Below the pieces are notes generated by a model. The model worked only from the letters and a program-made list of their open reading frames with translations. It was not told where the DNA came from and made no database searches. A program made the position numbers and the translations under genes. A DNA stretch of 64,000 nt from Oligoflexia bacterium (GTDB lineage: Bacteria > Bdellovibrionota > UBA1018), in contig CAVWVI010000005.1 in NCBI GenBank assembly GCA_963758495.1, forward strand, positions 29,960 through 93,959, in the 5' to 3' direction. Shown in pieces: positions 9,380 to 56,057 of the stretch. The number at the start of each line of letters is the position of its first letter. The first letter of the stretch is position 1.

Positions 9380-9440
9380 GAGTGATCATGATGAGTGATC
9401 ATGATGAGTGATCATGATGAGTGATTATGATGAGTTGTGA
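9380..9440. repeat. 13-bp tandem repeat (gagtgatcatgat) x4 plus partial, preceded by a 14-bp perfect palindrome tgagtcatgactca
   Basis: Read directly: 9380-9431 holds four consecutive 13-mers, the last with c->t. 9366-9379 is palindromic. Lies between convergent genes. Confidence 0.8.
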
Positions 9441-9442
9441 GA

Positions 9443-9775
9443 TCAGTACCGTGTATTACGGGGATCTACAAAGTGAATATCTTTTAGAATTTCTTTAGGG
9501 GGCGTGAGGCCTTTTTTTGCGCAAGGTGTCTTTCCATTCAGAATATCAAGGATCTGATGTTTGCGATGGAATAATTCAGATCTCCAGATAGGATGTTCCA
9601 CTTCTACCCAAAGCACTGAACTTTGAACGCGCACCGCTCTTGCGTGTTTTGCAATGACTTCACCTACAGCAATGGGCCAACGACCCAATGCTTCCGCTTC
9701 AGAAAGTCTCAAGGAGAAAGCTGGGTGCTTCTTTTGAGCTTTTCTTATAATTTCTAATAAGCTATCCAGCTTCAT
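9443..9775 (-). CDS. DUF721 (DciA-like) protein
   Basis: 110-aa ORF. Pattern ...LG(R)WPIAVGE...A.HARAVRV..S.LWVEV..P.W..EL resembles the DUF721/DciA family. Confidence 0.4.
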   Translation of the reverse strand: MKLDSLLEIIRKAQKKHPAFSLRLSEAEALGRWPIAVGEVIAKHARAVRVQSSVLWVEVEHPIWRSELFHRKHQILDILNGKTPCAKKGLTPPKEILKDIHFVDPRNTRY

Positions 9776-9803
9776 AAAATTACTGTATTACTGATAGGTA
9801 GAG

Positions 9804-10433
9804 ATGATCTACCATTATTTGCGACGATTGAGTTTTGTCCCACTTCTTTTAATTCAAGTCATGGGCTTCGGGGGCTGTGGTTACGGCTTTCAAAACTCTC
9901 GTAACCCATTGTTTTTGAAAGAGGGAATTAGAAAAGTGTATGTTTCCCCTGTTGTGAATAATTCTTATAAAGCGGGTATTGAAAATGTTATCTATAATAG
10001 TTTAATTCGGGCCATGGCAGCCTCTGGGAGGGTTGTACTGGTTCAGAACTCAGAGGATGCGGACGCTGTCCTTCAAGGGACTGTGGTGACCGCAGTCTAT
10101 GGAAGAAGTGCTGCTACTTCTACGGTGGCGGGATTGAACCCCGCGGGTATTGGATTGAATCTCCCTACGAGAGATTATGTGATTTCAACGGAATACACAG
10201 CGACTCTGTCCTGTTCTTTTGTATTGGCGCGAAAACATCCCAGTCCTTCTAAGAAAACACAAATTTGGGCTTCTTCATTTGCCAGGTCTAAACCTTTTCC
10301 TGCTGCGAACCAATTGGATGTTCCTGGAACAACCTCTCCGTTGATTAATGAGAGTGAATTTGATCGCACATTATCGGATATTTCTAAGAGCATGATGGAT
10401 GATGTTCATGAATCTATGTTAGCCATGTTTTAG
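9804..10433 (+). CDS. lptE: LptE-like LPS-assembly lipoprotein
   Basis: Signal peptide plus Cys (LLLIQVMGFGGCGYG). About 200 aa. Sits immediately upstream of holA, the conserved lptE-holA arrangement. Sequence-level similarity not verifiable here. Confidence 0.45.
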   Translation: MIYHYLRRLSFVPLLLIQVMGFGGCGYGFQNSRNPLFLKEGIRKVYVSPVVNNSYKAGIENVIYNSLIRAMAASGRVVLVQNSEDADAVLQGTVVTAVYGRSAATSTVAGLNPAGIGLNLPTRDYVISTEYTATLSCSFVLARKHPSPSKKTQIWASSFARSKPFPAANQLDVPGTTSPLINESEFDRTLSDISKSMMDDVHESMLAMF

Positions 10434-10441
10434 AAAACTTT

Positions 10442-11434
10442 ATGCCAAAATTAGAACTGAAAGCAGTCCAACGGGAATTAGAACAAGGTGTCATCTGGCC
10501 GGTTTACTGGCTTTACGGTCCTGAAAAGTTAAAATCTCGAGAACTCTTAAAAAGAATTCGTTTTGCTGTTTTAGGCCAAGAGGGGTCAACTACTGCGGGA
10601 CAGTGGAATTTTAATGAAGAAGTTTTTGAAGGGAATGAGATCGATGCTACTTCGGTTTTAGATTCTGTTCGAAGCCCATCTTTAATAGGAGGAGTTCGTC
10701 TCATTTTAGTTCGAGAGGCTCATGCAATGAAGAATCCAGAGGTCTTGTCTGAACTCTTCGGGGCACCTACAAAGCTTTCAGAACTCATGAGTGTGTGTGT
10801 TTGTATTTCAAAGGACTTGGATGGAAGGAAGAAGTTTTCTAAGGCCCTCGTGGAGGGGGCTGCAGTGGTCTCTTGTGAGGAAGTCATCGAAGTCCAGCGG
10901 GAGCCTTGGATTCAGTACTTGGCCCAACGAAGAGGGGTGGAGCTGAATTCCACTTTAGTGACTCGGCTTTCAGGTCTTGATCCGTGGTCATTAGATATTA
11001 TTGAGCAAGAACTGGAAAAATTTGTGGTGGCAGGTTCTTCTCCTGATGTGATTTTGGATAGCCTCGGTCTTTCGGGGGTGACAGAGAGATTTATCGAAGA
11101 TTTCTTCTCTCGCGATCTAGAAGCAGCCCTTCCTCTCGTCAGTCGATTTGCAGACTCTCCAGACGAGTCCTTGCCCCTTCTTGGACTGATTGGATGGAAT
11201 GTCAGACAGCTTGCGATTTGGCTTGCGGACCGTGACAATGGCACTCGAAATTCAAAACTGAATCCCTATGCAGTGGAGCGATTTCGAAAATGGAGTCCCT
11301 TCTGGAAGCAACACGAAGTGATTGAGTTACAAGCTAGGCTTTCTGAGTTGGATTTTCAGCTTAAGCAAACTCCTCTTTTACCTCTGGGGTTGTGGAGTAG
11401 TTTGGTGCTTCGGTTTTGTAGTAAGAGTTCTTGA
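10442..11434 (+). CDS. holA: DNA polymerase III delta subunit
   Basis: 330 aa. N-terminal VYWLYGPEKLKSRELLKRIR and overall length/helical C-terminus match HolA. Synteny with lptE. Confidence 0.7.
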   Translation: MPKLELKAVQRELEQGVIWPVYWLYGPEKLKSRELLKRIRFAVLGQEGSTTAGQWNFNEEVFEGNEIDATSVLDSVRSPSLIGGVRLILVREAHAMKNPEVLSELFGAPTKLSELMSVCVCISKDLDGRKKFSKALVEGAAVVSCEEVIEVQREPWIQYLAQRRGVELNSTLVTRLSGLDPWSLDIIEQELEKFVVAGSSPDVILDSLGLSGVTERFIEDFFSRDLEAALPLVSRFADSPDESLPLLGLIGWNVRQLAIWLADRDNGTRNSKLNPYAVERFRKWSPFWKQHEVIELQARLSELDFQLKQTPLLPLGLWSSLVLRFCSKSS

Positions 11435-11486
11435 GAAGATATTCTTTAATAAAATCGAATAATTTATTACAAATTGTAATTTGCAA

Positions 11487-14144
11487 TTACTCACGCGAAT
11501 GGATCGGCAAATAAATACTCAGGTTAGATTCACTCGATGCAATCGACTTTCGTTTTGCTTTGGCAATGCTTGACCTAACAGTAGTTTGTAAGATGCGCTG
11601 AGCCTCTCTCCCGTTAAGAATTTCACCTTTGGATTGAGCAATGAGGTACTTAGAGGTAATGTTGTCCAAGAACTCTTTTTCATTTTCAATCTGGATCGAT
11701 TTCTTACTTTCTAATTCTTGCTCCTGAATGAGTCTTTTCAGGCCCAGCTGAATGATGGCTCTAAATTCAGTTTCGCTTGGAGGAAAGATGGGCACTGCTG
11801 CTTGAAAACGATCCAATACGGGAGCTGGAATGCCTCCTCGGATCAGTTCCTGAGTTAGTTCGTTCTTTGTTACTGGTTTGGTATTCGAATGCAGTAACTG
11901 CTGCGCGGCATTGGTGGTTGCAAAAATGTGTGAATTCTTAAAATTAAGAATGTTACTTGTTTTGCCTCCTGATTGGTTTGAATTGATATTTTCAGAGATG
12001 GTCATTTCGCCACTATCTAACAATGCCAATAGAGCCTGTTGTACAGTGGGAGCTGCTTTTTCTAATTCATCTAAAATAATGACTGAATAAGCATTTTTTC
12101 TGATCACTTCAGCCATTTCTCTTCGAAAGCCTTCAACGTTACCTTCAGCATATTTATTCATTTCAATTCTGACCGACGGCAAATTCATGCCTTTACCCAG
12201 CGTTCGGCCCAGTTCTGTTTTGCCAACTCCTGGAAGGCCAGCTACTAAGACCCTGAGTGCTGGTTTTGTTTTATCATGTGAATGGGTGAATCGTTGTTCA
12301 ACTAGTTCAAATAATATGTCTTTGGCGAATGTTTGCCCAATGAGTGTTTGATTCAAAAAATCAGGAAAGTTTTGAATTTTCTCTTCTACTTTATGAGTGT
12401 CAAAAAAAATGGGATCGATGTTATAGAGTCTACTTGCTGCTTGATTGATATCTTGAATGGTAATGTCGCTGACGTTGTCATCTTTTAATTGTTTAGTGGC
12501 GTATACTTCACTCAGGAGCCCAGTCGCTTTGGAAGGTTGGGAGCCTGAAGCGCTAAATTCGTTCGATAAATGAATGATGTGCTTCAATACATCTGCCTTA
12601 AGGATGGGCTTATTATAGCGCTTCGACCATCCATTTATATAATTGGGTAATTCTTCTTCACTGGGTTCCTCTAAATTAATAATCGAGAATCTTCTGAGTA
12701 ATGCCTGATCACCTCCAAAAGCTTCGTAAAACTCGGAGTGAGTTGATGTACCAATGAGGGTAACATCTCCCTTGGCTAAATAGGACTTCATGTGTTGGAA
12801 TAAGTCATTACTATCGCTCTTGGTGGTTCCAGCTCCTCTGAAGGAGTGAATTTCGTCCATGAAAATAATGGAGTTTTTATGAGAAGACATCATGGATAGG
12901 AATTTATTGAGTTTATCTTGAACTTGCCCCACAAATTGAGATTTACTATCTAAAAAAGTTCCAATATTAACTGATTTCACTAGAGTATTCTTTGGCAGTT
13001 CTGGAAATTTTCCATTTCCAATATCAGCAAGAAATTTCATTACTAACTGAGTTTTTCCTACTCCGGGATTTCCAAGAATCACTACATTTTTGCACTCTGG
13101 TTTTTGCAGTGATATTCTAATTTTATTTATCAAGTCCTGGTATGCTTTGGTAGATTCGAAGTGAAGTGAGTTATCTTTAGATTCTCCTTCATGTTTTTTT
13201 AGATCTGCTTCTTCTTTTTTAAGAATAATATCTACAATCTCACGTACGTCAAGCCTTTCTGCAGTCATGAGAGGGGTTTCTCCCGAAAATCCATGAGTAC
13301 TATTTAGGTTAGCTCCATGATTGATCAGAAGTTTTGCAATTTGAACATGTCCATTTTCGATAGCCAGTTGGAGAGCGGTTTCGTAGTAAGAGTTCTTATG
13401 GTTTACGTTAGCTCCTGATGTAAGTAGAAGTTCAACGATTTCAGTATGCCCCTTTTCGGCTGCCCAGATGAGAGGCGTTGTTCTATATGTACCAAAAGTA
13501 GTATTTAAGTCAGCCTGATGATTGATGAGGAGCTTTGCAATTTGGGCATGCCCATTATTAATTGCCACGATGAGAGCGGATTCGTCATACTCGTTCCTAA
13601 GGTTGACCTTAGCTCCTGATGTAAGTAGAAGTTCAACGATTTCAGTATGCCCGTTTTCGGCAGCTATGATTAAGGGCGTTTTTTTTCCATAATCTATTTT
13701 GTAATTTACATTGGCTCCAGCTTCGAGCAAGAGCTTTACCCTATTTGTGTCACCCTCTGCGGCAGCATTGTACAGAGATTTATCTTGTTGCTCATTTTGA
13801 TCCTTGAGTGATTGTACGGCAGTAGTGGCAGTGACACCCATAATACCACTCATGAAGGCACGTTTTTTAGTATTTCTCTGGTTTCTATATGAATCATTAT
13901 TTTGATTGTATTGATTTTGAGAATAAGTTCTTATTTTATTTATATGTAATGACTTACCTAAAGTTAGTTGTCGGCTGGGGGTGATGCGATTCAGGGTAGA
14001 TGGTAATTTAGACATTCTATTACTGATAGGCTTACTAAATAAGTTTATACCATCCTTGATGATGCCTGCTTTTGCGATATCTGAAAGGAGAAATGCACTT
14101 ACAAGAGTGGCGGTTATCGTCGACTTAGGTAATAATGCTTTCAT
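11487..14144 (-). CDS. ankyrin-repeat / ClpA-like double AAA+ ATPase fusion protein with N-terminal signal-like segment (paralog 1)
   Basis: 885 aa. N-terminal hydrophobic MKALLPKSTITATLVSAFLLSDIAKAG. At least five ankyrin repeats (TPLIIAAENGHTEIVELLLTSGAKVN...). D1: GNPGVGKTQL, IIFMDEIHSFRGAG, LLRRF. D2: LIGQ..A, VAGLPGVGKTEL, ILDELEKA, ATTN. No ClpB M-domain; no IGF/IGL ClpP loop seen. Confidence 0.7.
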   Translation of the reverse strand: MKALLPKSTITATLVSAFLLSDIAKAGIIKDGINLFSKPISNRMSKLPSTLNRITPSRQLTLGKSLHINKIRTYSQNQYNQNNDSYRNQRNTKKRAFMSGIMGVTATTAVQSLKDQNEQQDKSLYNAAAEGDTNRVKLLLEAGANVNYKIDYGKKTPLIIAAENGHTEIVELLLTSGAKVNLRNEYDESALIVAINNGHAQIAKLLINHQADLNTTFGTYRTTPLIWAAEKGHTEIVELLLTSGANVNHKNSYYETALQLAIENGHVQIAKLLINHGANLNSTHGFSGETPLMTAERLDVREIVDIILKKEEADLKKHEGESKDNSLHFESTKAYQDLINKIRISLQKPECKNVVILGNPGVGKTQLVMKFLADIGNGKFPELPKNTLVKSVNIGTFLDSKSQFVGQVQDKLNKFLSMMSSHKNSIIFMDEIHSFRGAGTTKSDSNDLFQHMKSYLAKGDVTLIGTSTHSEFYEAFGGDQALLRRFSIINLEEPSEEELPNYINGWSKRYNKPILKADVLKHIIHLSNEFSASGSQPSKATGLLSEVYATKQLKDDNVSDITIQDINQAASRLYNIDPIFFDTHKVEEKIQNFPDFLNQTLIGQTFAKDILFELVEQRFTHSHDKTKPALRVLVAGLPGVGKTELGRTLGKGMNLPSVRIEMNKYAEGNVEGFRREMAEVIRKNAYSVIILDELEKAAPTVQQALLALLDSGEMTISENINSNQSGGKTSNILNFKNSHIFATTNAAQQLLHSNTKPVTKNELTQELIRGGIPAPVLDRFQAAVPIFPPSETEFRAIIQLGLKRLIQEQELESKKSIQIENEKEFLDNITSKYLIAQSKGEILNGREAQRILQTTVRSSIAKAKRKSIASSESNLSIYLPIHSRE

Positions 14145-14447
14145 TTTAATGACCTTTTTTTACTTATTAATAATAGTGATGGCATTTATAATCTTTATTT
14201 CTTTATTATTCAAGTAAAATATAAGATAATGTGGGTAATAAGCCAAATGTCCGATTTTAGGACACCCACGAATCCAACTCGAACTAAAATATTGCATATT
14301 GAACATCAATAATTAAAATGAAGTGGCTATTTTTATGTGAAAAATTCATAAATCAAATAAGTTAAAGATATTTAGCTTGATGTAGGAGTGAGTTGAGTAA
14401 AATAGGCTAAAAATATACTTATTAAATTTAAGTTATTTTGAGGACTA

Positions 14448-15221
14448 ATGAGGATTGATATGAAAAAAATGGCAGATAGTTTTAAATCGAATCTTTTATT
14501 GGCGTGTGTTTTTTCTTTTGTAGGAGTCACGGTTTTTGCAAATCCAAGTGAATCCGTAGTCATTCGTCGGATCAACCAAGTTTTGAGAAACTGTGACGTT
14601 TTTACTCCAGTCCGATTAGATCCAAAATGGAAAAATCAGTGGAATCACGCAAGAAGTCAGCTAGCTTATTCTAGACTTGCTCAGAATATATTAGTGGCTA
14701 AGGCGACTTGTGGTGCTTATGCTACACCTACTGCTGCTGAACTGACTCAGTACTATAATGAGTTGGAGCCTTTTCGTAGGCTCAGAGAAACTCTCAGAGA
14801 CAGTGCTGAAATTGCTAAAGAAAGACTGATTCAAGATGCTCATTTATCAAAAGAAGAAATTAAGCAACTTGATGATGAGGCCGACATTCAAGAATGTGCG
14901 CTGAATGATAGTTTAGGACAGAGGGACGGCAAAGAGGGACTCTTTGTTGCGCTTGAAACTCAGATCGCAAATGCAAATGATTTTAGTAGTCAATTCGTTT
15001 CAGAAGAGGATAAAAGATTGGAAGACACTCGTAGTATTGCAAGAGAGTCCATTCAAAGTCTTTTACGTACGCCTATTCATGCTTATGAATTAGCCCGAAG
15101 TTGCGGCGACCTATTTCTCAATGCTGTTCGAACTCGAGCTAAAAATAAGGCTAAAGCAGCAAAGAAGGCTAAAGAGTTGGAGATTAGAAGATATCAGCAG
15201 ATCCTGGACGACGATTGCTGA
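14448..15221 (+). CDS. secreted hypothetical protein (signal peptide, coiled-coil, basic C-terminus)
   Basis: 257-aa ORF. Signal-like LLLACVFSFVGVTVFANPSES. Lys/Ala-rich C-terminal tail. No recognisable catalytic motif. Confidence 0.35.
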   Translation: MRIDMKKMADSFKSNLLLACVFSFVGVTVFANPSESVVIRRINQVLRNCDVFTPVRLDPKWKNQWNHARSQLAYSRLAQNILVAKATCGAYATPTAAELTQYYNELEPFRRLRETLRDSAEIAKERLIQDAHLSKEEIKQLDDEADIQECALNDSLGQRDGKEGLFVALETQIANANDFSSQFVSEEDKRLEDTRSIARESIQSLLRTPIHAYELARSCGDLFLNAVRTRAKNKAKAAKKAKELEIRRYQQILDDDC

Positions 15222-15402
15222 TTCTGAAGAAGTATCAGTTCCAAGAATACAAGGGTTTGAGCAGGAGCGCGTTCGAAAAACTGACAGATAATTAATGATC
15301 TATCTGGCGTCGTCCTGTGTGGATGGCGCCAGAAACGAACTCCTCTTGTGCCTCTAGGGTTGTGGAGTAGTTTGGTGCTTGGGTTTTGTAGTAAGAGTTG
15401 AT

Positions 15403-16765
15403 TGTGCGCCGGAAAAAAAGGAAAAGGTGGAGCCCTCCTTAAGGTGGCTGAGTACAGATTTCGATCACTGTGAAAGATATTCGGATCGGTGCTCCTATTG
15501 GGGTAAGGTCGAAGACATTGAATTTAAATACGATTTTGTGACTGCTTAGGATCGAGCAAAGGCTGAAGACCTGCATTCAGAGTCTTCTATGCAAGAAGAT
15601 CCTTTTATTCTGAGACAAAAGTGTTTCCACCCACCCTATTGCCCAAATGAAATGTGCAAGTTTCATCTTCCCTCCAATGAGAAGGATTCCAATTCTTTTT
15701 TTTGGTCAAATGGTTGGGCTAAAACTCGATGCTATCCTTACCGGGTTCGCCAATTTCGATGTCGTTCCTGCAAGAGAAATTTTCGGTATACTTATTTCAA
15801 GCTCGATTTTCGCGAAAAAAAACCTGGCTTAAACTGCAAGATTTTCAGTTATATGACGTGTGGAGTGTCCAATCGAGAAATTGCAAGAAGACTGGAGACT
15901 TCCGAACATCTCATCCGCCTCAGAGTGAGAAAATTGGTTCAGTGGGCGCTGATAAAACAAACAGAGCGCACCCAGGCGTTGAAGATCAGCGAGCCCCTCG
16001 TTTATGATGGCCTCGAAGCGTTTGCTAAAAGTCAGTATGATCCGAATCAAATCCAACAAGCTATCGGCAAGGAGTCTTTGTTTATTTATGACTTTAACTT
16101 CGCGCCACTTAATCGAAAAGGAAGGATGTCTCCAAGGCAAAAGCAAGTCCGACGGTTGACGGAAGAAAAAGAGGGGCGTTACCCGCCAAAAGCCATTCGA
16201 ATTAGCACGGTGGAGATCTTCTCTCGCCTCTATGAAAGAAGAGCGGATCTAGCTCAGCCCTTGGTGATTTATTCGGACGAACATTTTCAATATCGTAGAG
16301 CTGTTGAACGCGATTTGAAGGATCTTAAAATCCATCAAGTCACGGTATCTTCTAAGCAGACGCGGAATTATCAAAACTGTCTATTCAGTGTAAATCACGC
16401 GGATCTCTTAATTCGTCAGCATATGGGAGCGTTCAGTCGGGAAACCATCTGCTTTGCAAAAAACCACGCTCGAATGGTTGGAAAGTACGTCCTCTTCATG
16501 GTTTGGAAAAATTTCTTTCGGCCTCAATTTGTAAAGCCTCATAAGAAAGATCCAAAGTCTAACCAGAACACTCCAGCTATGAGGCTGGGCTTAACCAAGA
16601 GGGCCCTTGAGTTTTATGAATTTTTTGACATCAAAAGGACTTTAGCACAAATCAACCTGAATCGAGAGTGGACCTTGTTTCATGAAGATCAAGTATTTTA
16701 CCCCCGGTCCTTAGCTGGAGCATCGGCGTAATAGGGGGACATCATCCTGTGTGGACGGCGCACAA
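15403..16765 (+). mobile_element. IS1595-family-like insertion sequence (about 1.36 kb) with 10-bp terminal inverted repeats
   Basis: ttgtgcgccg at 15403-15412 and cggcgcacaa at 16756-16765 are perfect inverted repeats. They bracket a single transposase-like ORF. The size is typical of the IS1595 family. Confidence 0.45.
15589..16731 (+). CDS. IS1595-family (ISXO2-like) transposase: N-terminal zinc ribbon, HTH, DDE-like core
   Basis: 380 aa. CPNEMCKF...CRSCKRNF zinc-ribbon. HTH-like SNREIARRLETSEHLIRLRVRKL. VIYSDEHFQYRRAV resembles the IS1595 'IYTDEW..Y' motif. Downstream N..R motifs (NHADLLIRQHMG; NHARMVGKY). Confidence 0.5.
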   Translation: MQEDPFILRQKCFHPPYCPNEMCKFHLPSNEKDSNSFFWSNGWAKTRCYPYRVRQFRCRSCKRNFRYTYFKLDFREKKPGLNCKIFSYMTCGVSNREIARRLETSEHLIRLRVRKLVQWALIKQTERTQALKISEPLVYDGLEAFAKSQYDPNQIQQAIGKESLFIYDFNFAPLNRKGRMSPRQKQVRRLTEEKEGRYPPKAIRISTVEIFSRLYERRADLAQPLVIYSDEHFQYRRAVERDLKDLKIHQVTVSSKQTRNYQNCLFSVNHADLLIRQHMGAFSRETICFAKNHARMVGKYVLFMVWKNFFRPQFVKPHKKDPKSNQNTPAMRLGLTKRALEFYEFFDIKRTLAQINLNREWTLFHEDQVFYPRSLAGASA

Positions 16766-16812: not shown

Positions 16813-17409
16813 ATGGGGTGTGTGATGAAATTCAATAAAAGTACCTTAAAAGTGGCTCTAGGGTTATCGGTTTTAGCGTCGCAAACAGGGTGTATCTCTG
16901 CTCTGGTTTTTCCTCCTCTGATCATTCCAGGAGTGATTTTTTATGCTCTCGGAGTAGGAGAGCCTTTTGAAAGAGGTGAAGGCCTGAGATTTACAGGGGT
17001 CTTATTAGGCTCAAAAGATCCTGGTCATGCTGTGGCTTTAAATCAAATTCCTTTGGATGAGAGTATTGCACAAAAAGCTGGGGTGAGTGTTGAGGACATT
17101 GAAGATTACAATAATAACCTCAACCAGATTCGAACTGTTGCGCTCGAGTTGCAACAGGATATTCGTTCGCAACTCGCACGGTCTGAACTCAAGCACTATA
17201 CAAGAATGGATCAGCTCGCTCAGGATGTTCAGGTGGATTCACTTGCAAAGAAATACGGCTTTGGAAGTGGGCAGGAGTTTTTAGAAACGATGACTTCTCA
17301 ACATCTTTCAAATGAAAAGGTGCAGTCTTTTTCTGAAGCAACTCACCTTGAAGCCGCACAGGTCAAAATTCTGCTTCATTACGGATTTGGCGTTAAGATG
17401 ACTCGTTAG
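16813..17409 (+). CDS. hypothetical lipoprotein
   Basis: 198 aa. Lipobox-like LASQTGC within the signal peptide. No known motif. Confidence 0.35.
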   Translation: MGCVMKFNKSTLKVALGLSVLASQTGCISALVFPPLIIPGVIFYALGVGEPFERGEGLRFTGVLLGSKDPGHAVALNQIPLDESIAQKAGVSVEDIEDYNNNLNQIRTVALELQQDIRSQLARSELKHYTRMDQLAQDVQVDSLAKKYGFGSGQEFLETMTSQHLSNEKVQSFSEATHLEAAQVKILLHYGFGVKMTR

Positions 17410-17432
17410 TAGTGGTTAATTAGGAAATTGTT

Positions 17433-18638
17433 ATGCAAATAAAAACACTGGGTTCTTTAAGACGACACTTGGGTGCTGCAAGAAGGACGGTGTTTTTATT
17501 TGCATTTCTATTGAGTTCCGTTGCCTTTGGAATGGGCGGAAAGCTTCAAAAGTATGAATCTCAGCATCACTCTTCTAATTGGCAAGTAAAAACTCCCAAA
17601 GTAGTGATTGCCTTTGGAATGTTGGATAGCGGTTTGATCCAACGATATAAACGCTTTTCAAAAGATACTCTGGAAAAATATCTCAAAAGAGTCAATCCTC
17701 TGCTCCGTCTTGAAGTCATCGAGAAAGCTCAAAGTCAGGATGTAGTCCAAGTCTTAGCCGATAAAAGTACGGTGGGGTTCATCTTTATCAGTCATACTTA
17801 TAAGGCTAAAAACATCGATGCAGCCATCTCTATTGCTGCGGATGGACACCCACTTCCTCCAGATATCTTGTCGGCAGCGACTCCGTCTTTAAGATTTAGT
17901 AGCTTCTTGGGCTGTCATGGTCCTGAAATCATGAAAGAGTACGGTGTTGCTTATGAATATAAGCGTCTTTCTGGGAGTCATATTTTTTATTACAATAGAG
18001 ATGAGTTGCTTTCCGCTAATTTCATGTTTATTGATAATTTAAAAAAGTTATTGAAAAAGGAAATAAAAGATTTGGCGAGATTTGATCCTCGTTATTTTAT
18101 GAGCGGTCAAATACCTCATGAAGATGAGAACGGAAAACTGACAATCCGAGTGAAAGATGTTTATCCGGGTATCGAACCTCGATTTGTTTATCTGAATGGC
18201 CGAATTGTGGGGATGTTGGGTACAGAAAAAGGAAATTCCAATCAAAGCTTAAATTATGAGGAATTTACTTTTGAGGTGCCAGCCTATGCCTTGGAAACAA
18301 AGAAGGAGGGTCAACATCATGTTAAAATTCTTTCGAGTGAGATTTCTCCCGGTGCTTTAGCTGATAACTATTTGATCGAATCTGTCACTCTTGAAGCTCC
18401 CTTTGGAAAGCTAGAAAAGCATTATTCCCCGTCATGGCATATTGGAGATGCAGATGCTCCTCCTTCTATTGCTGACTTTAAAGTGGAGCTTCATGGATCA
18501 AAAAAGGAGCAAAAAAAACAACTTCTGGATCATATTCGAAAGTATATGGTCCAGCTTGAGTGGATGGATCGAAACCCCGAAGTCTGGGCAGCTTCACCTC
18601 TCAATGGACGTCGTATTTTTTCAGACGTGTTACAATAG
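17433..18638 (+). CDS. secreted hypothetical protein
   Basis: 401-aa ORF. N-terminal hydrophobic RTVFLFAFLLSSVAFGMGG. No recognisable domain. Confidence 0.35.
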   Translation: MQIKTLGSLRRHLGAARRTVFLFAFLLSSVAFGMGGKLQKYESQHHSSNWQVKTPKVVIAFGMLDSGLIQRYKRFSKDTLEKYLKRVNPLLRLEVIEKAQSQDVVQVLADKSTVGFIFISHTYKAKNIDAAISIAADGHPLPPDILSAATPSLRFSSFLGCHGPEIMKEYGVAYEYKRLSGSHIFYYNRDELLSANFMFIDNLKKLLKKEIKDLARFDPRYFMSGQIPHEDENGKLTIRVKDVYPGIEPRFVYLNGRIVGMLGTEKGNSNQSLNYEEFTFEVPAYALETKKEGQHHVKILSSEISPGALADNYLIESVTLEAPFGKLEKHYSPSWHIGDADAPPSIADFKVELHGSKKEQKKQLLDHIRKYMVQLEWMDRNPEVWAASPLNGRRIFSDVLQ

Positions 18639-18642
18639 GCTG

Positions 18643-21309
18643 TCATTCCCGCGCTTGGATCGGCAAATAAATACTCAGGTTAGACTCCTTCGATGCAATC
18701 GCCTTTCGTTTTGCTTTAGCAATGCTTGACCTAACGGTATGTTGTAAGATTCGCTGAGCTTCTCTCCCGTTAAGGATTTCACCTTTGGATTGAGCAATGA
18801 GGTACTCAGAGGTAATATTGTCTAAGAATTCTTTTTCATTTTCAATCTGGATCGATTTCTTACTTTCTAATTCTTGCTCCTGAATGAGTCTTCTCAGGCC
18901 CAGCTGAACGATGTCTCTAAATTCAGTTTCGCTTGGAGGAAAGATGGGCACTGCTGCTTGAAAACGATCCAATACGGGAGCTGGAATGCCTCCTCGGATC
19001 AGTTCCTGAGTCAGTTCGTTCTTTGTTACTGGTTTGGTATTCGAATGCAGTAACTGCTGTGCGGCATTGGTGGTCGCGAAAATATGTGAATTCTTAAAAT
19101 TAAGAGTGTTACTGGTTTTTCCGCCTGTTTGGGTTGAGTTGATATTTTCGGAGATGGTCATTTCGCCACTATCTAACAACGCCAATAGCGCCTGCTGTAC
19201 AATAGAATCAGCTTTTTCTAATTCGTCTAAAATAAGGACTGAATAGGCATTTTTTCTGATAGCTTCAGCCATTTCTCGTCGAAATCCTTCAACGTTACCT
19301 TCAGCATATTTATTCATTTCAATTCTGACAAACGGCAAATTCATGCCTTTCGCCAGCGCTCGACCCAGTTCCGTTTTACCAACTCCTGGAAGGCCAGCCA
19401 CCAAAATCCTCAGTGCTGGTTTTGTTTTGTCGTGTGATTGTGTGAAGCGTTGTTCAACGAGTTCAAATAAAGTATCTTGAGCAAGTTTTTGCCCGATGAG
19501 AGTTTGATTCAGAAAATCAGGAAATCTCTGGAGTTTTTCTTCTATTTTATGGGTGTCAAAAAAAGTGGGATCGATGTTGTAGAGTCTGCTTGCTGCTTGA
19601 TTGATATCTTGAATGGTAATGTCACCGATGGTGTCGCCTTCTAACTGTTTGGTAGCGTATACTTCACTCAGGAGCCCAGTCGCTTTGGAAGGCTGTGAAC
19701 CTGAAGCGCTAAATTCGTTCGATAAATGAATGATGTGCTTCAATACATCTTCCTTAAGGATGGGTTTGTTATAACGCTTCGACCATGCGTTCATATAACT
19801 GGGTAATTCTTCTTCATCAGGTTCCTCTAAGTTAATGATCGAGAATCTTCTGAGTAATGCTTGATCACCTCCAAAAGCTTCGTAAAACTCGGAGTGAGTT
19901 GATGTACCAATGAGGGTAACATCTCCCTTGGCTAAATAGGACTTCATGTGTTGGAATAAGTCATTACTATCGCTCTTGGTGGTTCCAGCTCCTCTGAAGG
20001 AGTGAATTTCATCCATGAAAATAATGGAGTTTTTACGTGAAGACATCATGGATAGGAATTTATTGAGTTTATCTTGAACTTGCCCCACAAATTGAGATTT
20101 ACTATCTAAAAAAGTTCCAATATTAACTGATTTTACTAGAGTATTCTTTGGCAGTTCTGGAAATTTTCCATTTCCAATATCAGCAAGAAATTTCATTACT
20201 AACTGAGTTTTTCCTACGCCAGCATTTCCAAGAATAACTACATTTTTGCACTCTGGTTTTTGCAGTGATTTTCTAATTTTATCTACCACTTGCTGGTACG
20301 CCTTTGTGGATTCGAATTGATCTGAGTCTTTTTGAAGATTTTGCTTAGATTCCAAGGATTCAGAGAGTGATTCATCTTGAGCTTCTCTTAGAGATTGATT
20401 CGAATCGTCAGCCTCGTCTTCTTCATGGGTGCGTGATGGAGAGTTTTCAATAGGTGAAAGTTCTTGAGGATCTGCTCCTTTTTCAAGAAGTGCATCTACG
20501 ATCTCACGTTGGTCATATCTATGTGCGGACAGGAGAGGGGTCTCTCTAAAGATTCCTCCTTTAAAATTTAAGTCAGCCCCATGATTGATGAGGAGCTTTG
20601 CAATTTGAACATGGCCGCGTTCGATTGCTTCTAGGAGAGCGGTCATTTTGAACATGCCCTGGTGATTTACATGAGCTCCTGCTGCGAGTAGAAGTTTTAC
20701 GATTTCGATATGACCGTTTTCGGCTGCCCAGATGAGAGGGGTCATTTTGAGCTTGCCCTGGAGATTTACATGAGCTCCTGCTGCGAGTAGAAGTTTTACG
20801 ATTTCTGTATGATCGTTTTCGGCTGCCTCCATGAGAGGCGTGGTATTTGTAATGTCTGACTGACGATTTACGTCGGCTCCCGCTTCGAGCAGGAGTGTTA
20901 CCTTTTTGGTATCACCCTTTGTGGCTGCCAATCGAAGAGATCTATCTTTTTGATCTTGATCAGTGTTTTTAAAAGAGATGTCGTTGCTTGGACTGTTTTT
21001 GACTTTTGAGTAGAGAGGTTGAGGTTGAAGATACCCAAATAAGTTAAATTTATAAGTTGAATTTTCAGGTTTTTCTGAAGTGGGGTGATCGGTAGAGAAA
21101 TTTCTGAATGAAGGGAAGAAGGGGTGTTGAAACTTATAATTAAAATGAGGTTTTTTAGATGGGAATTTGAATGTGCTCTTGTTTACTTTGTTTTTAAATA
21201 ATTTTAAGCCGTTATTAAAGGGATTTGCATTTGCCACGTTCGATAACAGAAGGGTGCTGACGAGAGTAGTGATTGTTATGGATTTAGACAACGGCTCTTT
21301 CATATTCAT
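18643..21309 (-). CDS. ankyrin-repeat / ClpA-like double AAA+ ATPase fusion protein with N-terminal signal-like segment (paralog 2)
   Basis: 888 aa. C-terminal about 560 aa nearly identical to the 11487..14144 product (same Walker/sensor motifs). N-terminal signal-like ITITTLVSTLLLSNVANA. Ankyrin repeats diverged. Extra acidic Ser/Glu/Asp-rich linker. Confidence 0.7.
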   Translation of the reverse strand: MNMKEPLSKSITITTLVSTLLLSNVANANPFNNGLKLFKNKVNKSTFKFPSKKPHFNYKFQHPFFPSFRNFSTDHPTSEKPENSTYKFNLFGYLQPQPLYSKVKNSPSNDISFKNTDQDQKDRSLRLAATKGDTKKVTLLLEAGADVNRQSDITNTTPLMEAAENDHTEIVKLLLAAGAHVNLQGKLKMTPLIWAAENGHIEIVKLLLAAGAHVNHQGMFKMTALLEAIERGHVQIAKLLINHGADLNFKGGIFRETPLLSAHRYDQREIVDALLEKGADPQELSPIENSPSRTHEEDEADDSNQSLREAQDESLSESLESKQNLQKDSDQFESTKAYQQVVDKIRKSLQKPECKNVVILGNAGVGKTQLVMKFLADIGNGKFPELPKNTLVKSVNIGTFLDSKSQFVGQVQDKLNKFLSMMSSRKNSIIFMDEIHSFRGAGTTKSDSNDLFQHMKSYLAKGDVTLIGTSTHSEFYEAFGGDQALLRRFSIINLEEPDEEELPSYMNAWSKRYNKPILKEDVLKHIIHLSNEFSASGSQPSKATGLLSEVYATKQLEGDTIGDITIQDINQAASRLYNIDPTFFDTHKIEEKLQRFPDFLNQTLIGQKLAQDTLFELVEQRFTQSHDKTKPALRILVAGLPGVGKTELGRALAKGMNLPFVRIEMNKYAEGNVEGFRREMAEAIRKNAYSVLILDELEKADSIVQQALLALLDSGEMTISENINSTQTGGKTSNTLNFKNSHIFATTNAAQQLLHSNTKPVTKNELTQELIRGGIPAPVLDRFQAAVPIFPPSETEFRDIVQLGLRRLIQEQELESKKSIQIENEKEFLDNITSEYLIAQSKGEILNGREAQRILQHTVRSSIAKAKRKAIASKESNLSIYLPIQARE

Positions 21310-26681: not shown

Positions 26682-28619
26682 ATGGGAGCTTTTAATCAAG
26701 AGTGGCTAGTCACAGATCAGAGGGGCGCTTATGCAATGGGCACCTCTGATGGAATTCGCACTCGTAAGTATCATGGATTTTTCATGGGTGACGCAGGTCG
26801 ATCCCAAAAAGCTTTCCTGGTTGACCTTGATTTTGTATGTGATGGCATTTCACTTTGGCCGCATTGTTACTCGGGTCCGGAAGGGCTCGTGTTTTTTCCT
26901 GACTTGGAGAAATTAGGAATCTCCGTTCATTTTGAGCTCTGTGAGGAAGGTCCTCAGTGGCATTGGATTCTTCCTCACGGAAAACTCAAATTTAGTGTGA
27001 GACCTTCTTATCCGGGTGGCATCCAGTTAAGTTGGTCATGGTCTTCTAAAGAGCATAAAAAAGCACACCTTTGTGTACGTGGTTTTTGGGGAATGCGAGA
27101 TCTGCATTCGCTAGGGGGAGCTTCTTGGAGTTGGAAGCCTCAGGAGACTTCTGTAACTGAGTCTCGAGCCAGAGTTGAGGGAGCGCAAGGTAAGGGCGTA
27201 TACTGTTTGTTGAAGGGTGCTTGGAAGTGGACTGACAGTCCTCAGTGGAATCAAAACTTTCACTATTCGGAAGAACTCCAGCGAGGCTATGCAGCTGATG
27301 AAAATCTTTTCTCTGCGGGTACATTAGAATCAGATCTTAATTCAGATGAAAATGTCGATTGGCTTATTGCAGAAGATGAAAATGATCTGAGTGAAAAAAA
27401 TTTTACTATTAACGGTCCTCGTCCTAAAATTTGCGATTTTGTCGTCACAAGACCTGCAGGAATTATAGCAGGATTTCCTTGGTTTGGAGAATGGGGTAGG
27501 GACACTTTTATTTCCTTACCTGGGATTATAAGTGCCTTTTTAAAGATAAGAAAAGATCCAAAAGAAATCTGGCCATGGGCCCGAGAGCTTTTACATCGAT
27601 GGGGAACCTGGATTGATCGAAATGGAATGTTACCTAACGTCATTGAAAAGGAAGGAGTACTTCAGTGGGAGTCTGCGGATGCAACTCTATGGTGGTGTCA
27701 TTCTTTGGCTGAATTATGGATGTTTTCGCTTTGTGTTCCTTTTCCGGTTGCCGAAATTTCACTTGAATTTAATGGGTTATTGGGGCGAGCCATTGAGTCT
27801 ATTCGAAGTGGACATCATCGGTTTTTAAAAGAATCAGTATCGGGTACTTTAGAAGTGACCGAGCCCCATGTGACTTGGATGGATGCAAAAGTGGATGGAA
27901 TGATCATTTCACCTCGAATAGGCGCGCTGCCGGAAATTAACGCGCTTTGGTTTGAGGCGCGGTGCTTGCAATGGTTATGGTCGGAGGAGGAGGATTTTTC
28001 TGAAATTGAGGAATTAGGAAAAAAGGTTCTTCAGTGTCAGGAAGCAGATCGTCCTAACACTATCTTTTTACATAGTTTACCTTTAGCGCCTTCTTTTGTT
28101 TTGAAGGATTGGGAAAAATTAGAACGAGATTTGATAGATATTGCTGAAAAATTTTGGACTCCTGTAGGTTTAATGACGTTGAGTCGATTCAATCCTCATT
28201 TTCGACCTCGTTGTGTAGGTACTCAAGAACAACGGGATCGATCTTATCATCAAGGACCGGCGTGGGCATGGTTGGGAGGAAATTTTGAAATTGCTCGACA
28301 TCGATTAGTTACGTGTGTTCCAGATTCTACCTGCTTTAATCATTCTCAATTTGATAAAATGTTCACTCTTCAAACACTTGAGGAAATGCCCGTGAAAGAT
28401 CACATTCCAGAACTCTTTGATTCAGAGCCCCCATTTACTCCACGAGGAGCTCCCGCCCAGGCGTGGAGTCTCGCCTGTTTAGAAGAGGCGAAGGCAAGGC
28501 GGCGGATGAGAGTGGATTCAAAAATAAGTAAAATATTAGCGCAGCGCTGGTTAGGTCGGAGTGAGCGAAAACTAAAAGGAAGACGGACTAAATCCATGAT
28601 TGAGACCCTAGACAAATGA
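26682..28619 (+). CDS. glycogen debranching enzyme family protein (GDE_N + amylo-alpha-1,6-glucosidase GDE_C)
   Basis: 645 aa. FPWFGEWGRDTFISLPGI and HQGPAWAWLGG are characteristic of archaeal/bacterial GDE_C-family enzymes. Confidence 0.6.
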   Translation: MGAFNQEWLVTDQRGAYAMGTSDGIRTRKYHGFFMGDAGRSQKAFLVDLDFVCDGISLWPHCYSGPEGLVFFPDLEKLGISVHFELCEEGPQWHWILPHGKLKFSVRPSYPGGIQLSWSWSSKEHKKAHLCVRGFWGMRDLHSLGGASWSWKPQETSVTESRARVEGAQGKGVYCLLKGAWKWTDSPQWNQNFHYSEELQRGYAADENLFSAGTLESDLNSDENVDWLIAEDENDLSEKNFTINGPRPKICDFVVTRPAGIIAGFPWFGEWGRDTFISLPGIISAFLKIRKDPKEIWPWARELLHRWGTWIDRNGMLPNVIEKEGVLQWESADATLWWCHSLAELWMFSLCVPFPVAEISLEFNGLLGRAIESIRSGHHRFLKESVSGTLEVTEPHVTWMDAKVDGMIISPRIGALPEINALWFEARCLQWLWSEEEDFSEIEELGKKVLQCQEADRPNTIFLHSLPLAPSFVLKDWEKLERDLIDIAEKFWTPVGLMTLSRFNPHFRPRCVGTQEQRDRSYHQGPAWAWLGGNFEIARHRLVTCVPDSTCFNHSQFDKMFTLQTLEEMPVKDHIPELFDSEPPFTPRGAPAQAWSLACLEEAKARRRMRVDSKISKILAQRWLGRSERKLKGRRTKSMIETLDK

Positions 28620-55982: not shown

Positions 55983-56057
55983 GGTCCCATAGTTAAATGG
56001 ATATAACAGCCCTTTCCTAAAGGGCCGTTCCAAGTTCGATTCTTGGTGGGACCACCA
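55983..56057 (+). tRNA. tRNA-Arg (anticodon CCT)
   Basis: 75 nt including CCA. Acceptor GGTCCCA/TGGGACC with discriminator A+CCA. D-arm GTTA-AATGGATA-TAAC. Anticodon stem GCCCT/AGGGC, loop TTCCTAA (T33, CCT, A37). T-arm CCAAG-TTCGATT-CTTGG. Confidence 0.8.

Follow-up and report, generated by a model that had tools for sequence, protein, structure and literature searches.

The window analysed here, 64,000 nucleotides (64 kb) of contig CAVWVI010000005.1 from an uncultured member of the Bdellovibrionota, contains an intact holA gene whose 3′ end recurs 3.9 kb downstream next to an insertion sequence (IS), and it is the origin of this second copy that concerns us. The holA gene (10442–11434, + strand) encodes the 330-residue delta subunit of DNA polymerase III, as identified by TIGR01128, by Pfam DNA_pol3_delta and by full-length alignment to 14 relatives; its score against the TIGR01128 equivalog model is 105.7 bits against a cut-off of 80, with residues 21–312 aligned to model positions 1–303 of 316. 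A 52-nt AT-rich spacer (11435–11486) separates it from a convergent gene, ClpA1 (11487–14144, − strand), whose 885-residue product combines ankyrin (Ank) repeats with two Clp/Hsp100-like AAA+ domains (Pfam Ank_2, AAA and AAA_2) behind a putative signal-peptide-like N-terminus. An earlier reading made from the sequence alone had placed an Ank-ClpA paralog in the segment bracketed by the two holA 3′ ends, and this double-AAA+ gene is that paralog. It is followed by an open reading frame (ORF) of 257 amino acids (14448–15221, + strand; 253 amino acids from the ATG at 14460, the form in which the gene is called in public data), which matches no known family in Pfam or NCBIfam and also has a predicted signal-peptide-like N-terminus. 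Beyond it lie a palindromic stub, the second copy of the holA 3′ end and the IS.

A repeat search aligned window positions 11363–11429 with 15333–15399 as a direct repeat of 67 nt, of which 61 are identical (91%), at a spacing of 3,970 nt. The duplicated 62-bp core with four mismatches that the sequence-only reading had described was recovered within it at 58/62 identity; its partner at 15338–15399 was placed correctly, whereas copy 1 of the core runs from 11368 to 11429 and is one base shorter than the 11368–11430 originally given. Copy 1 in full (11363–11434, + strand) is the functional last 23 codons and stop codon of holA. The tail that it encodes, KQTPLLPLGLWSSLV.RFC, is kept in the 14 aligned relatives, with a lineage consensus of KQTPLLPLGLWSxLVxRFC over the repeated stretch, and since the repeat encodes this conserved C-terminal tail, it is a genuine piece of the gene rather than a generic repeat. 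Copy 2 (hereafter holA′; 15333–15401, + strand) comprises the last 22 holA codons, remains in frame (KRTPLVPLGLWSSLVLGFCSKS) and ends with a TGA at 15399–15401. It differs from copy 1 by 6 substitutions in the 67 nt, three of which change codons at conserved residues, including the invariant-residue changes Q309R and L312V, as expected of a decaying fragment free of selection. Copy 2 is a non-functional, holA-derived pseudogene fragment of 69 nt. The longest identical core shared by the two copies does not exceed 27 nt. The suggestion that the 62-mer could be a common repeat was not borne out within the window, where no further copy with up to three mismatches was found (and 0 in 100 shuffles), nor was there a third copy of the holA tail. 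Likewise, positions 14145–15332 have no similarity to the region beyond the second ClpA gene of the window, and no homology was found between the sequence past the IS (16766 onward) and that following holA (11435 onward).

The transposon noted earlier beside the second copy does adjoin it, beginning at 15402 directly after the copy 2 stop codon. It is an intact IS1-like element of 1,364 bp (15402–16765, + strand), delimited by its inverted repeats, by its occurrence in multiple copies and by an end-to-end alignment (77% nucleotide identity) with L041, a 1,366-bp contig of the same run whose transposase is 82% identical. The left terminal inverted repeat (IRL, 15402–15422, TTGTGCGCCG...) and the right one (IRR, 16745–16765, ...CGGCGCACAA) are 21 nt long with the first 10 nt perfect, and the terminal sequence (A)TTGTGCG is common to about 20 metagenome relatives. 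The transposase gene (15589–16731) encodes 380 amino acids in a single frame. Three transposase copies that are at least 98% identical fall into one 90%-identity cluster; two are on a 1.68-Mb contig (1,683,874 bp) and one on the 164,808-bp contig of the window, and these contigs presumably belong to one genome. Hundreds of further transposase homologs occur on contigs of 1.2–2 kb, and the transposase has no match in plasmids. The IS is active or multi-copy.

The label "IS1595-like" that had been attached to the element is unsupported, as no IS1595 match was obtained in NCBIfam or Pfam and weak IS1-family matches were found instead. The NCBIfam IS1 family model (NF033558), which describes proteins with an N-terminal zinc finger and helix-turn-helix (HTH) and a DDE-type C-terminal part, gives weak matches in 17/18 family members over the zinc-finger/HTH part, with a best E value of 2.4e-7. 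The elements also resemble the IS1 family in their length of ~1.36 kb, single ORF, terminal inverted repeats, several copies and, in some relatives, duplications of ~8 bp. In contrast, all scores fall far short of the curated cut-off of 100 bits (22.4 bits for the window transposase, confined to its N-terminal part), Pfam recognises no transposase domain, the 380 amino acids are encoded in one frame and the (A)TTGTGCG repeat is not that of IS1. From these comparisons the element appears to be IS1-like but is left unclassified. No target-site duplication was found at any offset around the window IS, whose flanks are ...AAGAGTTGA on the left and ATAAATTGAC on the right. Duplications of ~8 bp were seen in the relatives L070, L064 and L057, the only ones among about 20 loci in which they were clear. 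That the window IS lacks one is weakly in keeping with a rearrangement on its right side after insertion. One pair of relatives, L064 and L065, shares the same IS and right flank with different left flanks; the difference could come from a chimeric assembly or from a genuine rearrangement that the IS caused in that population.

Both edges of copy 2 coincide with termini of this one type of IS. On the right, the copy 2 stop codon ends at 15401 and the IRL of the intact element starts at 15402. On the left, holA codon 308 starts at 15333, and the sequence ending at about 15332 matches the other terminus of the element: 27 nt (15306–15332) correspond to the right terminal repeat of the neighbouring IS with 18/20 identities in the core, and the 17-mer TCCTGTGTGGAYGGCGC is exact and has just two occurrences in the window, one at 15313 and one at 16745 in the right end of the IS, with 0 expected by chance. 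This match lies in a 31-nt, near-perfect palindromic stub (15303–15333, + strand) with a 13-bp stem and a predicted folding energy of −24.9 kcal/mol. By its sequence the stub is a relic of an IS right end, its outer end facing copy 2. The resulting arrangement, IRR>, holA′, <IRL, encloses 69 nt and corresponds in geometry to the interval between two IS copies in direct repeat. No transposase remnants were detected to the left of the stub, and the right end of the intact IS does not form the palindrome of the stub. The left arm of the stub differs from the IS at three positions, all of them A in the IS and G in the palindrome, and each improves the pairing. Possible origins of the stub are the two ends of a collapsed IS, a single end that became palindromic, or a hairpin that has been selected.

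The window derives from a metagenome-assembled genome, and both the ClpA paralogs and the multi-copy IS are repeats of the kind that break short-read contigs, which makes it conceivable that the second copy or the order of the segments stems from a mis-join. An independent Logan assembly of run ERR11523676 contains two contigs that match window positions 9396–11649 and 13623–15614 at 100% identity, the latter passing through ClpA1, the ORF, the stub and copy 2 into 213 nt of the IS. As this assembly spans the holA end and both joints of copy 2, the joints are real and an artefact is ruled out there; moreover, two copies that differ at 6 positions are not a collapsed repeat. We consider the chance of an assembly error to be negligible, and the earlier caveat to that effect can be set aside for these joints.

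The position of the right joint follows a habit of the IS family. Across 11 metagenome loci (L042, L046, L047, L056, L057, L059, L064, L067, L070, L085 and L106), 15 IS ends follow a flanking ORF directed toward the element, at a distance of 0–12 nt from its stop codon (14 of the 15 within 7 nt), and several elements occupy the minimal gap between convergent genes. The C-terminal domains of the flanking proteins are complete in Pfam alignments: polA covers positions 3–380 of 381, CheB methylesterase 1–174 of 174, endonuclease I 5–235 of 235, Oxidored_molyb 7–169 of 169 and AMP-binding_C_3 2–121 of 124. These data suggest that the family preferentially targets the 3′ ends of genes or their stop codons; a literature search on stop-codon-targeting IS elements returned nothing specific. 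The joint between the holA′ stop codon and the IRL is a typical insertion of the family, at a holA end, and the stop-codon habit explains the in-frame stop of copy 2 without recourse to an attachment-site core. The proximity of these elements to stop codons may deserve more attention than the repeat.

Taken together, these observations lead us to propose, with moderate confidence, that copy 2 is the scar of an IS-driven duplication and deletion within a hypervariable stretch of this Bdellovibrionota lineage, and not an attachment site. A duplicative rearrangement linked to the IS had been listed among the alternatives in the sequence-only reading, and it is the one that the evidence favours. 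Cointegrate-type transposition between sister chromosomes, as known from IS1 and other replicative DDE elements, gives rise to tandem duplication and adjacent deletion. In the present case, replicative transposition into the sister chromosome would have joined an IS right end to holA codon 308, duplicating the interval from the target to the IS and leaving holA itself intact; the redundant copy would then have been trimmed through deletions starting at IS ends, and one of the two IS copies would have collapsed to the palindromic stub. The event would have taken place inside the lineage-specific variable stretch (11.4–26.6 kb) that lies between holA and the glycogen genes. The locus shares with IS1-type duplications and deletions a novel joint at an IS terminus, directly oriented host DNA, a second IS in the same orientation and the absence of a target-site duplication. 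It differs from them in that one IS is reduced to a 27–31-nt palindromic stub and that nearly all of the duplicated unit has been deleted, with 69 nt left. On this account the terminus of an essential gene was probably duplicated, and what persists of the duplicate in the variable stretch of this uncultured member of the Bdellovibrionota is a short pseudogene relic.

Several observations sit uneasily with an IS-mediated scar. The left IS copy survives only as the 27–31-nt stub, and this stub is a suspiciously good palindrome, which the intact right end is not, so that more than simple decay may have been involved. The left flank of the stub agrees with the right flank of the intact IS at only 4/8 positions, with no matching 8-bp duplication. 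Under a simple tandem duplication, the spacer and a copy of ClpA1 would be expected after copy 2; they are absent, and extra deletions have to be assumed. As duplications are clear in so few relatives, their absence here is weak evidence. Finally, the closest holA is 72% identical, and hence no near relative displays an intermediate or the ancestral arrangement.

Direct repeats of a gene 3′ end that bracket a 3.9-kb gene-bearing insert, with the gene itself intact, had been read as the attL/attR footprint of site-specific integration. In its fullest form this account has ClpA1 and the secreted-protein gene arrive on a 3.9-kb element that integrated at the holA 3′ end; copy 1 would be the replacement tail which it brought in and copy 2 the displaced original (attR), and the integrase would since have been lost or would act in trans. 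The layout of the repeats, the intact holA, the variation of the downstream stretch among relatives and the in-frame stop in copy 2, as in an original gene end, all agree with it, as does the fact that none of 40 related holA loci has a homolog of any gene in the insert. Nevertheless, tyrosine and serine recombinase domains were not detected by Pfam or NCBIfam in the insert, in the 15-kb variable stretch (ORFs of at least 120 amino acids between 11.4 and 26.6 kb, except a 132-residue ORF overlapping the M28 gene) or in 24 further window ORFs, including those at 38–64 kb, in agreement with the earlier remark that no integrase is visible. A tblastn search with the 45-residue tail found a second holA C-terminal fragment within 10 kb of holA in 0/40 related loci, with chance matches only, which argues against holA being used repeatedly for integration in this lineage. 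In the literature on holA as an attachment site nothing relevant was found.

The repeats themselves also fit poorly with integration: they differ at 6/67 positions, the identical core is never longer than 27 nt, and the supposed right end of the island is an IS terminal repeat, pointing to a joint made by a transposase. An attachment-site model gives no reason for either edge of copy 2 to meet an IS terminus, and the in-frame stop, as shown above, is accounted for by the stop-codon habit of the IS. The 3.9-kb insert is unlike plasmids and phages, with no match among either set of records, and a paralog of its ClpA1 gene resides 3 kb away. Scans for tRNA genes and with Rfam revealed nothing near the site, the only tRNA of the window being at 55983. 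Islands and prophages in the 3′ ends of tRNA, tmRNA and protein genes likewise show a directly repeated 3′ end around an insert and an intact target, whereas here an integrase, recurrence of the site and an identical core are all missing, and the distal repeat is bounded by IS ends on both sides. The structure behaves like known IS-mediated duplication and deletion joints and lacks the features that define an integrative island; we regard a decayed or trans-mobilised island as unlikely. The locus thereby offers a caution, in that a direct repeat of a gene 3′ end around a gene-bearing insert can mimic attL/attR when it is set by transposon ends, with no integrase.

A second ClpA gene, ClpA2 (18643–21309, − strand), encodes an 888-residue Ank and double-AAA+ protein by Pfam, again with a candidate signal-peptide-like N-terminus. 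Its existence raises the possibility that a single segmental duplication, independent of the IS, copied the holA tail together with a neighbouring ClpA gene to give ClpA1 and ClpA2, the IS having inserted later on both sides by chance or target preference. The two paralogs have the same orientation and each lies downstream of a holA-tail copy; they align over their full length at 68–70% amino acid identity. Furthermore, the identity of the tails (91–93.5%) resembles that of the ClpA 3′ tract (11491–13171 against 18647–20327; 1,681 bp, 91.8% nucleotide identity), synonymous divergence (dS) is similar at 0.23 for the tails and 0.28 for ClpA, and gene-end targeting by the IS could produce the right joint without any causal role. 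The divergence of the paralogs is, however, very uneven. The N-terminal third is saturated (dS about 1.0; nonsynonymous divergence, dN, 0.50), whereas the C-terminal 561 codons have a dS of 0.28 and a dN of 0.044, and within the 3′ tract, whose patches span 83–99%, blocks of 97–99% nucleotide identity (ClpA1 residues 363–482) alternate with blocks of 83–92%. A saturated N-terminal third and a patchy 3′ tract indicate old paralogs homogenised by gene conversion, and we conclude that ClpA1 and ClpA2 are not products of the event that duplicated the holA tail. In addition, ClpA homology stops at the stop codons, and the 52-nt spacer between holA and ClpA1 is absent from both flanks of copy 2 and from the 3′ flank of ClpA2, which makes it unlikely that a single tandem duplication produced both the second tail and the second ClpA. 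Copy 2 and ClpA2 are separated by 3.2 kb of unrelated genes, and copy 2 begins at codon 308, where there is no stop codon, and yet this left edge meets an IS end. We consider a duplication independent of the IS to be rather unlikely. A collection of 5.8 billion proteins contains no full-length protein of this kind other than ClpA1 and ClpA2, the next matches being ankyrin-only proteins or AAA+ proteins at about 31–33% identity. The two proteins may possibly act as effectors in a predatory or host-associated bacterium.

The near-perfect palindrome of the stub admits a further account, in which the stub, holA′ and the IS (15303–16765, 1,463 bp) travel together as a mobile unit and no local duplication ever occurred. 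An IS once seated at the true holA stop codon would have taken up the 69 nt upstream of it, with the left arm of the stub serving as a surrogate left end, and the unit would then have transposed to its present position. That the left arm looks like an IS end in inverse orientation, with 9/13 identities to the terminus, giving a 1,463-bp unit with inverted termini, speaks for this account, and the joint between holA′ and the IRL is a typical insertion joint. On the other hand, the stub has no origin in holA sequence, the terminal bases that are most conserved are mismatched at 4 positions in the surrogate end, no target-site duplication was found around the stub, and none of 8 bp flanks the unit from stub to IS. 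No comparable extra end was present upstream of the IS in 20 relatives; a candidate in L046, which at first resembled a solo end upstream of the IS, was a chance match and turned out to be a conserved polA coding motif. We judge a mobile unit of this kind to be quite unlikely, and the more specific proposition that an IS1-like family specific to stop codons picked up the last 22 holA codons and carried them along, the palindromic stub standing in as an end, to be very doubtful. If it were true, a stop-codon-targeting transposon that duplicates and moves gene tails would give bacteria a means of exon-like shuffling at the C-terminus. An IS-mediated duplication and deletion remains the reading that we prefer.

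The setting of the scar is a stretch of variable gene content between two conserved blocks. By its holA homologs the window belongs to an uncultured Bdellovibrionota/Oligoflexia genome. In relatives, genes for an FAD-oxidase, alanine racemase, an ABC ATPase, one further protein (x), DciA and LptE precede holA, and the variable stretch is followed by a glycogen debranching enzyme, a glycosyltransferase and GH57; the contexts of P0003, P0004 and P0007 are syntenic on both sides with a different middle. The nearest holA elsewhere, the one with 72% identity, is on a 1.2-kb contig and comes from the 5.8-billion-protein collection. In the window the variable stretch occupies 15 kb (11.4–26.6 kb, with the debranching enzyme gene at 26682), against ~5.7 kb in relatives. 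It begins with ClpA1, the 253/257-residue ORF, copy 2 of the holA tail, the transposon, two ORFs of 198 and 401 amino acids (16813–18638, + strand) that have hydrophobic N-termini and belong to no known family, and ClpA2, and continues with a HiPIP gene, an M28 peptidase, an SRPBCC protein and an alcohol dehydrogenase. The interval from holA to the glycogen genes appears as a hot spot of gene-content variation in the lineage: it holds toxin–antitoxin pairs and a TMEM260-like gene in L002 (10985–16727), a two-component system in L004 (10976–16663) and an unrelated 15 kb in the window.

Two smaller features of the intergenic gaps may be recorded. The 401-residue ORF converges on ClpA2, and only 4 nt separate the two stop codons (which end at 18638 and 18643), leaving a gap of the type that the IS family fills elsewhere and that is empty here. 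The spacer between holA and ClpA1 contains at 11467–11479 a perfect 13-nt palindrome, TTACAAATTGTAA, that loosely resembles abutted IS termini (CACAA/TTGTG) and may simply be an AT-rich, terminator-like palindrome.

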